Assembly (NCBI RefSeq): GCF_003991155.1
Contig: NZ_CP031295.1
From: Escherichia coli
Lineage (GTDB): Bacteria; Pseudomonadota; Gammaproteobacteria; Enterobacterales; Enterobacteriaceae
Direction: 5' to 3' (one strand)
Length of the DNA: 64,000 nucleotides
Position 1 is the first letter of the stretch, and each line of letters opens with the position of its first letter. A program made the position numbers. Below, one piece after another: positions 21,001 to 27,000 of the stretch.

Positions 21001-24000
21001 GTAACGGATAATCGAGACTGCCTTTCCCGGAAGTATCGGAAAGATTATAGAACTTTTTGTCTGATATACGATACGCCGTGTAATTAAATGAGCCGGACGT
21101 AAATTTATAAGCCACTACACGTGATTTTCCCGCTTTCTTTTGCAGTACGAGTTTTAATGATTCATTTTTTTTCAAATGCCGAAGATTAAAGCGGGAAGGC
21201 AAAGAGCGCTGAAGGATAGCGATCTCGTTCGATTCCAGCCCCGAGCGGGTGGCTGAAAGGTAAGCATTTTCTTTTACGACATCGGTAATGACTCCAACTT
21301 ATTGATAGTGTTTTATGTTCAGATAATGCCCGATGACTTTGTCATGCAGCTCCACCGATTTTGAAAACGACAGCGACTTCCGTCCCAGCCGTGCCAGGTG
21401 CTGCCTCAGATTCAGGTTATGCCGCTCAATTCGCTGCGTATATCGCTTGCTGATTACGTGCAGCTTTCCCTTCAGGCGGGATTCATACAGCGGCCAGCCA
21501 TCCGTCATCCATATCACCACGTCAAAGGGTGACAGCAGGCTCATAAGACGCCCCAGCGTCGCCATAGTGCGTTCACCGAATACGTGCGCAACAACCGTCT
21601 TCCGGAGCCTGTCATACGCGTAAAACAGCCAGCGCTGGCGCGATTTAGCCCCGACGTATCCCCACTGTTCGTCCATTTCCGCGCAGACGATGACGTCACT
21701 GCCCGGCTGTATGCGCGAGGTTACCGACTGCGGCCTGAGTTTTTTAAATGGCGGAAAATCGTGTTGAGGCCAACGCCCATAATGCGGGCGGTTGCCCGGC
21801 ATCCAACGCCATTCATGGCCATATCAATGATTTTCTGGTGCGTACCGGGTTGAGAAGCGGTGTAAGTGAACTGCAGTTGCCATGTTTTACGGCAATGAGA
21901 GCAGAGATAGCGCTGATGTCCGGCGGTGCTTTTGCCGTTACGCACCACTCCGTCAGTAGCTGAACAGGAGGGACAGCTGATAGAAACAGAAGCCACTGGA
22001 GCACCTCAAAAACACCATCATACACTAAATCAGTAAGTTGGCAGCATCACCGGCTCTTTCATCAGGAATTGAGAAGACTCCCTTGCTTAAATGAAACTGA
22101 TGAACATAAGGGAAATACCGTACAACCCAGCATTCACGCTGGATCAGCGTCGTTTTAGGTGAGTCATTAATAAAGATTTGGAATTGTGACAGAGTGCAAA
22201 TTCAGACACATAAAAAAACGTCATCGCTTGCATTAGAAAGGTTTCTGGCCGACCTTATAACCATTAATTACGAAGCGCAAAAAAAATAATATTTCCTCAT
22301 TTTCCACAGTGAAGTGATTAACTATGCTGATTCCGTCAAAATTAAGTCGTCCGGTTCGACTCGACCATACCGTGGTTCGTGAGCGCCTGCTGGCTAAACT
22401 TTCCGGCGCGAACAACTTCCGGCTGGCGCTGATCACAAGTCCTGCGGGCTACGGAAAGACCACGCTCATTTCCCAGTGGGCGGCAGGCAAAAACGATATC
22501 GGCTGGTACTCGCTGGATGAAGGTGATAACCAGCAAGAGCGTTTCGCCAGCTATCTCATTGCCGCCGTGCAGCAGGCAACCAACGGTCACTGTGCGATAT
22601 GTGAGACAATGGCGCAAAAACGGCAATATGCCAGCCTGACGTCACTCTTCGCCCAGCTTTTCATTGAGCTGGCGGAATGGCATAGCCCACTTTATCTGGT
22701 CATCGATGACTATCATCTGATCACTAATCCAGTGATCCACGAGTCAATGCGCTTCTTTATTCGCCATCAACCAGAAAATCTCACCCTGGTGGTGTTGTCA
22801 CGCAACCTTCCGCAACTGGGCATTGCCAATCTGCGTGTTCGTGACCAACTGCTGGAAATTGGCAGTCAGCAACTGGCATTTACCCATCAGGAAGCGAAGC
22901 AGTTTTTTGATTGCCGTCTGTCATCGCCGATTGAAGCCGCAGAAAGCAGTCGGATTTGTGATGACGTTTCCGGTTGGGCGACGGCACTGCAGCTAATCGC
23001 CCTCTCCGCCCGGCAGAATACCCACTCAGCCCATAAGTCGGCACGCCGCCTGGCGGGAATCAATGCCAGCCATCTTTCGGATTATCTGGTCGATGAGGTT
23101 TTGGATAACGTCGATCTCGCAACGCGCCATTTTCTGTTGAAAAGCGCCATTTTGCGCTCAATGAACGATGCACTCATCAACCGTGTGACCGGCGAAGAAA
23201 ACGGGCAAATGCGCCTCGAAGAGATTGAGCGCCAGGGGCTGTTTTTACAGCGGATGGATGATACCGGCGAGTGGTTCTGCTATCACCCGCTGTTTGGTAA
23301 CTTCCTGCGTCAGCGCTGCCAGTGGGAACTGGCGGCGGAGCTGCCAGTGGGAACTGGCGGCGGAGCTGCCGGAAATTCACCGTGCCGCCGCAGAAAGCTG
23401 GATGGCCCAGGGATTTCCCAGCGAAGCGATTCATCATGCGCTGGCGGCAGGCGATGCGCTGATGCTGCGCGATATTCTGCTTAATCACGCCTGGAGTCTG
23501 TTCAACCATAGCGAACTGTCGCTGCTGGAAGAGTCGCTTAAGGCCCTGCCGTGGGACAGTTTGCTGGAAAATCCGCAGTTGGTGTTATTGCAGGCGTGGC
23601 TGATGCAAAGCCAACATCGCTACGGCGAAGTTAACACCCTGCTGGCCCGTGCTGAACATGAAATCAAGGACATCAGAGAAGGCACCATGCACGCAGAATT
23701 TAACGCTCTGCGCGCCCAGGTTGCGATTAACGATGGTAATCCGGATGAAGCGGAACGGCTGGCAAAACTGGCACTGGAAGAACTGCCTCCGGGCTGGTTC
23801 TATAGCCGCATTGTAGCAACCTCAGTGCTGGGTGAAGTATTGCACTGCAAAGGCGAATTGACCCGCTCACTGGCGCTAATGCAGCAAACCGAACAGATGG
23901 CGCGCCAGCACGATGTCTGGCACTACGCCTTATGGAGTTTAATCCAGCAAAGTGAAATTCTGTTTGCCCAAGGGTTCCTGCAAACCGCGTGGGAAACGCA

Positions 24001-27000
24001 GGAAAAAGCGTTCCAGCTGATCAACGAGCAGCATCTGGAACAGCTGCCAATGCATGAGTTTCTGGTGCGCATTCGTGCGCAGCTGTTATGGGCCTGGGCG
24101 CGGCTGGATGAAGCCGAAGCGTCGGCGCGTAGCGGGATTGAAGTCTTGTCGTCTTATCAGCCACAGCAACAGCTTCAGTGCCTGGCAATGTTGATTCAAT
24201 GCTCGCTGGCCCGTGGTGATTTAGATAACGCCCGTAGCCAGCTTAACCGTCTGGAAAACCTGCTGGGGAATGGCAAATATCACAGCGACTGGATCTCTAA
24301 CGCCAACAAAGTCCGGGTGATTTACTGGCAAATGACCGGCGATAAAGCCGCCGCTGCCAACTGGTTGCGTCATACGGCTAAACCGGAGTTTGCGAACAAC
24401 CACTTCCTGCAAGGTCAATGGCGCAACATTGCCCGTGCACAAATCTTGCTGGGCGAGTTTGAACCGGCAGAAATTGTTCTCGAAGAACTCAATGAAAACG
24501 CCCGCAGTCTGCGGTTGATGAGCGATCTCAACCGTAACCTGTTGCTGCTTAATCAACTGTACTGGCAGGCCGGACGTAAAAGTGACGCTCAGCGCGTGTT
24601 GCTGGACGCATTAAAACTGGCGAATCGCACCGGATTTATCAGCCATTTTGTGATTGAAGGCGAAGCGATGGCGCAACAACTGCGCCAGTTGATTCAGCTT
24701 AATACGCTGCCGGAACTGGAACAGCATCGTGCGCAGCGTATTCTGCGAGAAATCAATCAACATCATCGGCATAAATTCGCCCATTTCGATGAGAATTTCG
24801 TTGAACGTCTGCTAAATCATCCGGAAGTGCCAGAACTGATCCGCACCAGCCCGCTGACCCAACGTGAATGGCAGGTCCTGGGGCTGATTTACTCCGGTTA
24901 CAGCAACGAGCAAATTGCAGGCGAGCTGGAAGTGGCGGCAACCACCATCAAAACGCATATCCGCAATCTGTACCAAAAACTCGGTGTCGCCCACCGTCAG
25001 GCCGCGGTACAACACGCGCAGAAACTGCTGAAGATGATGGGATATGGGGTGTGAGTTTAGCCGGATAATACGTCGGATCCGGCTTACATCTTTATATCAT
25101 TCAATGCTCACCCGCGTTACGCCATCCGCCTCCACCAGACTAAACCGCACTGGCAAGAAACGCTCCACCACCGCGATATTGGTCAGCAGATGGCATGAGG
25201 GATGGGCGACCGTAAATTCTCCCGCACCCGCCAGCGCCATCGGTAGCACCAACTGGTCGGCGAGATATTCCCCCACCGCCGCCGGGCTTGCCAGGTAGCG
25301 TTTCACCTCTTTCACCAACTGCGCAGCGACCACCTCGGCGCTGACGCGCTTTTCACCGACGATAAAAAAGCGTTCGGTGATATTTTCACTTTCGACTTCA
25401 AGCGAGACGGTATTACCCGGTCCCTGGTCACGCGGCAGGTTATGAATATTGGGGTTTGAGGGCCAATGATGCAAAAAACCACGCTAACAGCGTTAGTTCA
25501 TTGTTTATATTGAAATTGATAGGTACTGCGTTTACAGCCACTTCAGTCGTCATGGTGGGGCTGAGGGACGGGTCCGCTTGGAAAAAGGAAATTATCCTAC
25601 TATAAGGGCTTCCCCGAACAGTCAACGCCGGTTTTTAATTTCTGTCTGTTCATCAATGAAAGGCAAGGGATAAGACTGCGCTACTATAAACGGTCATGCT
25701 GAATCGCTAGTGATTCGGACCCTGATGAAAGACGCTCGTGAGATCCTCCTTCGTTAATCGGATAGTGATATCCAGTAGGATATGCAGATACTTCTCACGG
25801 GGGTCTAACCCTTTACCATCAACAATTTACAGTTCAGTTACTACTCAGTTAAATTTTTCATGTTGTTGAATACAGTCTGAAGTCATCGCCGTAATGTAAT
25901 GATGCCCAGCACAACCTCGCATTCTTGGCGGCGATTGCAACGACAGCACGCCAGTATCCCCGCCTACCAATCAACGAGCAGACCCAACGGCTAAACGGGT
26001 CCGTTCTATTCTCTGCCCCTACCATTACAGAACGGGCTCCCTGGACCAGTAGGGTTCGCAGATAGGCATCACCCGCTTTTGTTATCCTGCCAAGCTTTGA
26101 TTTTCCGCCACTACTGTATTGTGATGGCGTTAGCCCCAACCAGGCTGCCAGTTGGCGCCCGTTCTTAAAATCATGGGCATTGCCAATACTGGCGACCAGC
26201 GCACTCGCTGTGGTGGGCCCAACACCTTTCAGTTCCATTAACTGCTGGCTGCGATGATCTGTTTTGGCCACACGAGATAATACCCTGTCATATTCGGCGA
26301 TTTTCTCTTCAATATTAGTGACATGTGTCAATAGATCATCAATGCACAGCCTAACCTGTACTGGCAGAGTTTCCTTCTGGTCAGAAACAACATGACGCAG
26401 AGCATCAGTGCTTTGTGGGGCAATAACCCCGAATTCAGATATCAGGCCCCGAAGACGGTTATACGTTGCTGTTCTTTCCTGGATAAATCCCTGTCTTGTC
26501 CGATGTAAGCATTGCATTGCCTGCTGGCTTTCGTCTTTGACTGGTACAAAGCGCATATGCGGCCGCTGCACTGCCTCACAAATAGCTATTGCATCAGCTG
26601 CATCATTTTTCCCGGTCTTACCCGCCATGCGATAGGGTGAGACAAATTTCGGAGCCATCAACCGGACATCATGGCCATACTGCCTGAATAATCTTGCCCA
26701 ATAGTGGACACCCGAGCAGGCTTCCATTCCAATGACACAGGGAGGTAAACCTGCGATGAGTTCAGAAAGTGCTGCACGCGACACCTTGGGTTTAACCAGA
26801 ACAGCTGGCACTGTTGCAAATAGTCGGTGGTGATAAACTTATCATCCCCTTTTGCTGATGGAGCTGCACATGAACCCATTCAAAGGCCGGCATTTTCAGC
26901 GTGACATCATTCTGTGGGCCGTACGCTGGTACTGCAAATACGGCATCAGTTACCGTGAGCTGCAGGAGATGCTGGCTGAACGCGGAGTGAATGTCGATCA

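Follow-up and report, generated by a model that had tools for sequence, protein, structure and literature searches.

A plasmid-borne IS1-malT-rtcA' module of Escherichia coli with a chromosomal-type allele and a 25-bp duplication in malT

A 25-bp tandem duplication in malT is the commonest lambda-resistance mutation in the laboratory (PMC6112682). Duplication of GAACTGGCGGCGGAGCTGCCAGTGG at position 1,022 was found in three of 12 independent Escherichia coli K-12 mutants resistant to lambda-vir (W1, W3, and W9; Chaudhry et al. 2018, Table 2, PMC6112682), and the same 25-base duplication has been reported in E. coli B REL606 (PMC6112682) and likewise in the REL606 derivative LR01 (PMC8890733). 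The duplication mutants are Mal-minus, revert to Mal+ at 2.3–2.7e-5 per generation, and show "leaky resistance"; the duplication acts as a reversible high-frequency switch that shuts off LamB expression, giving lambda resistance (PMC6112682). We analyzed 64,000 nt of E. coli contig NZ_CP031295.1 (assembly GCF_003991155.1), in which the same duplication is present in a plasmid-borne malT next to the insertion sequence (IS) IS1 and the 3' end of rtcA. This whole stretch is called the window below, and coordinates are window positions. Profile search placed its start inside genes for Rep_3-type replication and a resD-like recombinase, so the window is part of a plasmid. Comparison with related plasmids and chromosomes suggests that the malT-rtcA' block belongs to a widespread mobile module, and that the allele in the window was probably acquired later by recombination with the chromosome of an E. 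coli host.

The malT-rtcA' module and its allele

The block (Table 1) comprises malT with the malP-malT intergenic region before it and the convergent 3' end of rtcA after it, and it matches E. coli chromosomes, where the gene order is malP-malT-rtcA-rtcB, over its full length. The original prediction, made from the window without database searches, had described the malT promoter, the whole malT gene, and the convergent rtcA end, and this content is borne out by the chromosome matches and protein profiles. The predicted start also stands, but the right end lies at 25450 and not at 25453.

The same block is present on many plasmids with another allele, which we call the archetype. At an identity of at least 99%, the archetype block was found on 54 PLSDB plasmids, distributed across Escherichia, Citrobacter, Shigella, Klebsiella, and Salmonella, and also on 40 E. 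coli RefSeq plasmid records. malT is intact in the archetype plasmids and is annotated as encoding 901 residues. The IS1/malT junction is base-identical in every relative examined (L001, L002, L004, L005, L007, and L008; L numbers are our handles for compared sequence records). In L004, L005 (pXJW9B263-1, NZ_CP067400.1), and L010 (pECO-cbb3, NZ_CP026206.1), rtcA' is 744 bp long and is followed by a second IS1 in direct orientation. A 9-bp direct repeat (TATTGCAGC) flanks the whole IS1-malT-rtcA'-IS1 unit in L005 and L010; therefore, an IS1 composite transposon appears to have moved as one unit. In the window, self-BLAST over the 64 kb found a single IS1 copy. Its flanks (tacgacatc and ggctctttc) differ, and there is no target-site duplication around either the IS1 or the whole unit. 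Judged against these relatives, the window carries a decayed derivative of a widespread plasmid passenger module, not a fresh local capture. The original prediction had placed the capture between IS1 and an IS110-family remnant. The relatives contradict this: the ancestral vehicle had two IS1 copies, 744 bp of rtcA', and the 9-bp target duplication, and IS5708, the IS110-family element in question, came later.

To locate the source of the window allele, we made a three-way comparison of the window, an archetype plasmid (L001), and an E. coli chromosome (L003, NZ_CP029747.1), with the duplication handled separately. The archetype plasmid block is approximately 6% divergent from typical E. coli. 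The window differs from L001 by 200 substitutions, one 1-bp indel, and the 25-bp duplication, all of which lie within 22108–25430, and the two are near-identical outside the block. All 200 discriminating sites in this interval are of the L003 chromosome type, and the window has no private single-nucleotide polymorphisms (SNPs). The leftmost 28 bp of the block carry the other haplotype, as all seven variable sites at 22055–22079 are of the plasmid type (Table 1). A contiguous donor-type tract is thus flanked by recipient-type sequence, as in gene conversion. When the duplication is removed, the whole block differs from the E. coli chromosome allele at seven of 3,374 bp (99.8% identity), and its MalT is identical to that of L003 (WP_000906949.1), whereas 11 residues differ from the plasmid archetype. 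Because the first 28 bp are of the plasmid type and the remainder is of the chromosomal type, the E. coli allele appears to have come by homologous replacement within an existing plasmid module, and the pattern points to gene conversion of the whole block from an E. coli host chromosome. The original prediction took the block for a capture of the chromosomal allele that it now resembles. This does not agree with the plasmid-type first 28 bp or with the occurrence of the same IS1 junction in the 54 PLSDB plasmids whose block is approximately 6% different.

Only plasmids carried the archetype allele at identities of at least 99%; among chromosomes it is matched best at 98.4% and 98.1%, and 5,403 of the 5,465 matching records lie at 90–95%. 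The closest chromosome, L006 (NZ_ABACVG020000001.1), shares the leftmost 28 bp of the archetype. Its divergence is only local: between L006 and L003, malP-malT-rtcA is 89–96% identical, but identity in malQ and rtcB on either side reaches 98.8%. The malP-malT-rtcA region occurs within E. coli as deeply divergent haplotypes, and the plasmid archetype comes from the rarer one.

Several further observations concern the module. The window IS1 differs from the IS1 of every related module examined at positions 21358, 21365, 21895, and 21949 (99.48% identity); a separate IS1-IS1 conversion is possibly behind these four differences. Three PLSDB records (NZ_CP134663.1, NZ_CP141089.1, and NZ_OL790696.1) are 4.8–4.9 Mb long and are evidently chromosomes. 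A 9.5-kb "plasmid" (CP088747.1) contains an E. coli-type malT annotated as four hypothetical proteins. In the chromosomes L017 and L022 (locus 7660–8414), malT and rtcA are separated by a TacA1-family antitoxin gene and an open reading frame (ORF) of 161 residues, and identity to the window at the rtcA end is only 92.7%. The malT promoter is CRP-dependent and has weak hexamers. It was not picked out in a consensus promoter scan, which is a weak test for such a promoter. In the literature searched, there was no description of plasmid-borne malT or of the IS1 or IS5708 module, and the composite appears to be unnamed there.

The 25-bp duplication and its distribution

The repeat in malT consists of two 25-bp units and a shared hexamer, GCTGCC, at 23315–23370, and can equally well be placed in the register 23321–23370. 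By chance, 64 kb of sequence would be expected to hold approximately 6e-11 perfect 25-bp tandem repeats. The second copy begins at malT nucleotide 1,022, which corresponds to window position 23345 (22324 + 1,021). Wild-type malT has GCTGCC at both ends of the 25-bp interval, and this arrangement explains slippage in both directions. Sequencing noise was considered as a source of the duplication and rejected, because the repeated 25-mer is perfect and slippage at this site is documented.

The MalT profile NF003420 matches in two frames, with profile positions 1–341 in frame 1 and 329–903 in another frame. The two fragments score 619 and 1,025 bits against a cutoff of 537, and no single-frame, full-length match is present. 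The ORF that starts at the malT start codon (22324–23484) encodes 386 residues. Its predicted product consists of 341 native residues and 45 out-of-frame residues and lacks the sensor and LuxR-type DNA-binding domains; therefore, the plasmid MalT is predicted to be unable to activate the maltose regulon. The window copy is accordingly a pseudogene of true malT. The original prediction that a perfect 25-bp duplication inactivates malT is thus confirmed at the level of the reading frame, with the frameshift after codon 341, but the published recurrent hot spot had not been recognized.

We searched for the duplication in complete genomes with a 40-nt junction probe. Of 5,426 complete E. coli genomes, 29 carried it (approximately 0.5%), always in the chromosomal malT, and the sources of the carriers include human, goat, deer, beef, and river. 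The chromosome of JKHS006 (L023, NZ_CP147065.1, locus 118–198) has three tandem 25-bp units (+50 bp), and its malT is annotated as frameshifted; the hot spot can therefore expand beyond a duplication. Split MalT gene calls of 386 and 530 residues are present in hundreds of public assemblies and represent several different alleles. Exact look-ups of the 386-residue and 530-residue fragments returned only chromosomal contexts. Some assemblies have an N-terminal MalT fragment of 370 residues instead, which reflects a different frameshift. The duplication was found on no other plasmid: a 131-bp query against PLSDB gave only two-piece matches spanning 106 bp, and none was found on E. coli RefSeq plasmids.

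The sil-pco region, IS5708, and the resistance region

The features of the window that bear on the module are collected in Table 1. The sil operon lies to the left of the module and is followed by a pcoG-like gene that abuts IS1. The IS1 junction falls at codons 3–4 of the pcoG-like gene, and only its first three codons and promoter are gone. This gene is truncated at IS1, as originally predicted. The DNA of the gene is 100% identical to that of plasmid ETEC1706 (L007), our comparator for the pco side, where the gene is full length (245 residues, start MYS-TDV...). Window positions 16783–21287 are 100% identical to ETEC1706. To the left of its IS1-malT module, ETEC1706 retains the pcoG start, a 450-bp ORF, and 1,760 bp of pcoA. 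Removal of its positions 4506–7231 (2,726 bp) gives the structure of the window. These 2,726 bp begin exactly at the IS1 end, which is the pattern of an IS1-mediated adjacent deletion.

The pcoABCDRSE operon is not present next to sil in the window, where the sil genes are accompanied by only the pcoG-like gene without its first three codons. Nothing past 21287 in the whole window matched the pcoG-pcoA region of ETEC1706 by BLAST; pcoB-E were not searched with their own sequences. The view that pco beside sil was removed through IS1-linked events is supported by ETEC1706, in which pcoG and 1,760 bp of pcoA remain next to this IS1. The original prediction also held that IS1 had simultaneously truncated the pcoG-like gene. 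Simultaneity is not demonstrable; the intermediate in ETEC1706 argues for separate steps, and the pco-side events look sequential rather than simultaneous.

Table 1. Features of the window around the malT-rtcA' block
Feature	Position	Strand	Evidence or remarks
silE	7836–8384		Confirmed by profile search
silP, last gene of the complete sil silver/copper operon	17809–20286	+	825-residue ORF; annotated silP in near-identical relatives L001 and L007
DUF2933 ORF	Between silP and pcoG-like gene		
pcoG-like M23 peptidoglycan DD-metalloendopeptidase gene	20558–21283	-	M23/MepM-family matches
IS1, complete, 768 bp	21284–22051	-	Both ends read directly
Chromosomal block, 3,399 bp	22052–25450	+	E. coli homology ends after GAATATT at 25450
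First 28 bp of block, plasmid-archetype haplotype	22052–22079	+	0/28 mismatches to L001, L004, and chromosome L006; 7/28 to L003
Putative replaced tract	22080–25450	+	0 mismatches to L003 except the duplication; 200 and 1 indel to L001
malT, frameshifted	ATG 22324, nominal stop 25054	+	Coding sequence 2,731 nt = 2,706 + 25
Hot-spot repeat GCTGCC-N19-GCTGCC-N19-GCTGCC, 25-bp tandem duplication	23315–23370	+	Tandem Repeats Finder: period 25, 2.2 copies, 100% match
rtcA', 3'-terminal 354 bp of RNA 3'-phosphate cyclase gene	25097–25450	-	NF003247 profile positions 222–338 of 338
IS5708 (IS110 family) remnant	25451–26806	-	99.6% identical over 1,356 bp to IS5708 annotated in L002
IS26	26807–27626	+	Terminal repeats GGCACTGTTGCAAA and TTTGCAACAGTGCC; opens multidrug-resistance region

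On the right, the IS110-family remnant that had been predicted beside the block was identified as IS5708. Its end on the rtcA' side is intact, and the 5' end of its transposase gene was removed by IS26 at 26806/26807. The transposase matches NF033542 at profile positions 33–341 of 343; approximately 32 N-terminal positions are absent, and the element is incomplete. In the plasmid group of the window, IS5708 lies within rtcA', 354 bp from the rtcA stop codon. As this position is inside the rtcA' of the ancestral IS1-IS1 module, IS5708 is a later arrival and not a capturing element. The distal part has been lost; IS5 has taken its place in L002, and IS26 has done so in the window and L001. Approximately 400 bp of non-coding sequence lie 3' of the transposase gene at the intact end of IS5708 (25451–25857). 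A search of 20000–28000, including this non-coding end, found no Rfam family match at E ≤0.01.

Positions 20000–27632 are co-linear with many plasmids of E. coli, "Shigella", Citrobacter, Klebsiella, and Salmonella. The right-hand 37 kb is split into resistance segments by IS26 terminal repeats, of which there are four sets (26807–27626, 37621–38440, 46796–47614, and 62202–63021); the third is 819 bp long instead of 820 bp and was not returned by BLAST with the full IS26. In relatives of the window, sul3, floR, TnAs3, ISVsa3, ISAba1, and an integron are annotated in this right-hand region, and 21.5 kb of it is 100% identical to Salmonella plasmids of approximately 246 kb. At the other end of the window, a replication initiator gene on the minus strand (1–867) is cut by the window start, and the RepE/RepM models score far below their curated cutoffs there (141 versus 342 bits).

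Proposed history, alternative explanations, and comparison with known systems

We propose a four-step history for the module and consider it probable as a whole: capture of the module, decay through events at pco, IS5708, and IS26, overwriting of the allele by the host chromosome, and a slippage duplication. In the first step, which the relatives show, the IS1-malT-rtcA'-IS1 transposon acquired malT and a piece of rtcA from a chromosome of Escherichia with the divergent haplotype and transposed onto plasmids as a unit. Comparison of the plasmids shows that, in the second step, one lineage had the module beside sil, inside pco. IS5708 inserted into rtcA' and was later cut by IS26, and a 2.7-kb IS1-adjacent deletion took pcoA' and the sequence up to pcoG codon 3. 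For the third step, the SNP pattern suggests that recombination with the chromosomal malT in an ordinary E. coli host overwrote 22080–25450, and that the conversion extended to the limits of usable homology on both sides. The duplicated sequence of the fourth step is read directly in the window; slipped-strand mispairing between the two GCTGCC hexamers 25 bp apart would have produced it, shifting the frame after MalT residue 341 and leaving a presumably null plasmid copy. The duplication may have arisen on the plasmid or have been imported with the chromosomal allele, and the window alone is compatible with either; import would be the expected course had a cell with two malT copies been under selection for resistance to a LamB phage.

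The replacement has precedents among the relatives. pECO-cbb3 (L010, 8733–12089) carries an E. coli-type tract corresponding to approximately 22069–23415, which includes an 11-bp deletion typical of the donor allele and reaches the IS1 edge of the block. In pXJW9B263-1 (L005, 7291–8247), the tract corresponds to 22341–23297, is nested in that of pECO-cbb3, and shares its private SNPs. With the common allele of E. coli B/HS type, the pXJW9B263-1 tract shares 99.8% identity; this allele is matched by 3,483 records at 99% or more, so that the host of pXJW9B263-1 is not singled out. Partial E. coli-type tracts on two plasmids from unrelated projects show that plasmid-chromosome exchange takes place at this module. 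In addition, chromosomes with exactly the window allele are present in E. coli from Hong Kong wastewater (STEFF_1, STLIN_13, STLEFF_29, and SWHEFF_69), the plasmids of these strains share the resistance region of the window, and archetype sil-IS1-malT plasmids were obtained in the same survey. These co-occurrences are circumstantial evidence that the exchange partners co-circulate.

Several observations weigh against a replacement in the cell. Identity at the two conversion endpoints extends over only 28 bp and 20 bp, very short runs given that 360 bp of uninterrupted identity are available at 22226–22585. Such endpoints are unusual for simple double crossovers and need branch migration to the heterology border or single-strand annealing; Chi cannot explain them, as there is no Chi site in 20000–28000. 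The BLASTN search for a donor, which the original prediction had proposed, returned chromosomes with the identical allele, but these best matches lack the duplication and the exact donor was not found. No chromosome combining the exact window allele with the duplication was found, and the duplication carriers L011–L022 differ from it at 32–104 sites. A collapsed 94%-identical repeat in the assembly would likewise end exactly at the limits of homology. We therefore weighed an assembly or polishing artefact, in which an archetype plasmid malT and an L003-type chromosomal malT with the duplication were collapsed and the chromosomal consensus was written into the plasmid contig. This would account for a tract without private SNPs whose two ends coincide exactly with the limits of alignable homology, for a duplication that is otherwise exclusively chromosomal (29 genomes, no plasmid), and for a variant that is unique among approximately 57 module-bearing PLSDB plasmids. 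However, a divergence of 6% is normally resolved by reads spanning 3.4 kb or by short-read graphs, mixed sites would be expected rather than 200 of 200 of one type, and plasmid copy number usually favors the plasmid allele. The partial tracts on the two plasmids from unrelated projects, one of them at the IS1 edge, also speak for natural exchange, and we regard an artefact as unlikely. If IS1 and the IS110-family element had captured malT-rtcA' at this site directly from a typical E. coli chromosome, this would explain the 99.8% identity of the block to E. coli chromosomes after removal of the duplication. Such a capture is nevertheless highly improbable: both junctions are base-identical in dozens of plasmids with the 6% different allele, the first 28 bp carry the other haplotype, two IS1 copies and a target duplication belong to the ancestral vehicle, and IS1 is very unlikely to have inserted independently at the identical base. 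An independent capture at the window site was rejected on these shared junctions, the plasmid-type 28 bp, and the two-IS1 vehicle. The polarity could also be reversed, with the E. coli-type block as the original and the archetype allele introduced later by conversion from a divergent Escherichia chromosome. Conversion is possible in either direction, and mosaic copies exist. This order of events has very little to commend it, as the leftmost 28 bp in all copies are of the divergent haplotype and are contiguous with it in chromosome L006, in the undecayed IS1-IS1 composite, still bounded by its target duplication, the allele is the archetype or derived from it, and the archetype is found on 54 plasmids against one; it was rejected on these three grounds.

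A refinement of the proposed history, rather than an exclusive rival to it, is that the duplication and the allele arrived together, and that selection by a LamB phage favored the conversion that copied the null allele onto the plasmid, a loss of heterozygosity. An intact plasmid MalT is expected to complement a chromosomal null in standard maltose-regulon genetics, and both malT copies would therefore have to be inactive for lower LamB or phage resistance. A host with the chromosomal duplication and an intact plasmid malT would still be phage-sensitive, and one recombination event would inactivate the second copy, explaining the allele and the duplication together. The converted tract includes the duplication, and there are no SNPs between the tract and the chromosomal allele, so the event would be recent. 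The high frequency of this duplication among laboratory lambda-resistant mutants is in line with such selection (PMC6112682). On the other hand, it is equally possible that the hot-spot duplication arose on the plasmid after a neutral conversion, approximately 0.5% of E. coli genomes have the duplication with no known phage history, and the model does not require a full-length tract. Given that frequency, a single plasmid instance is no evidence of selection. We consider the joint import possible but doubtful. Still more speculative, and improbable at present, is the extension that a phage-attacked host, diploid for malT as the master activator of the LamB phage receptor, escaped in one step by copying the duplication null onto its plasmid instead of through two separate mutations, leaving a reversible, slippage-driven susceptibility switch that could spread by conjugation. 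If true, this would be a natural case of phage-driven loss of heterozygosity between plasmid and chromosome, and the laboratory "leaky resistance" allele would be at work in the wild.

Under the four-step history, a plasmid block that resembles a fresh chromosomal capture can be an old mobile module overwritten by its current or former host, and donor inference for plasmid passenger genes from best BLAST hits calls for caution. The window adds a natural plasmid-borne case of the malT duplication. Known mainly from lambda coevolution experiments, this duplication is a recurrent natural polymorphism, as indicated by the 29 chromosomes and one triplication described above. Furthermore, approximately 55–60 sequenced plasmids supply a second, intact malT of a foreign allele, whose effect on maltose regulation or phage sensitivity was not found in the literature searched.

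All components of the locus are of known kinds (an IS1 composite, an IS1-adjacent deletion, an IS110-family insertion, an IS26 truncation, homeologous gene conversion, and a slippage hot spot), and no new mechanism is involved. Their combination is particular: of all module-bearing plasmids searched, only that of the window has a fully converted copy, and no other has a copy with the duplication. Among its close counterparts are the sil-IS1-malT-IS5708-IS26 regions of the IncFIA/IncR-type plasmids pR1041-el-168k (NZ_OR095750.1) and pCUVET16-242.1 (CP115334.1), which are co-linear with 20000–27632 and have identical pcoG/IS1, IS1/malT, rtcA'/IS5708, and IS5708/IS26 junctions. Unlike the window, they encode an intact MalT of 901 residues (WP_016240421.1), and they differ from it at the 200 sites within 22108–25430 and by the 25-bp duplication. 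With the IS1-malT-rtcA'-IS1 transposon of IncF-type plasmids (MS 115-1, NZ_CP146666.1; pXJW9B263-1; pECO-cbb3), the window shares the left IS1, the IS1/malT junction, and the starting base. It has lost the right 390 bp of rtcA' and the second IS1 through the IS5708 insertion and IS26 truncation, its passenger allele is different, and its malT is broken. In Tn9-type IS1 composites, direct IS1 repeats likewise flank a passenger and a 9-bp target duplication surrounds the unit, as in the relatives of the window. Here, in place of a resistance gene, the passenger is a regulator gene of the chromosome from which a plasmid has nothing obvious to gain. The deletion on the pco side starts exactly at the IS1 end, as in other IS1-mediated adjacent deletions. 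The duplicated unit is a cyclic permutation of GAACTGGCGGCGGAGCTGCCAGTGG, with the same position, GCTGCC flanks, and frameshift as in the lambda-resistant malT alleles of K-12 and REL606 (PMC6112682, PMC8890733); in contrast to those chromosomal alleles, the copy described here is plasmid-borne.

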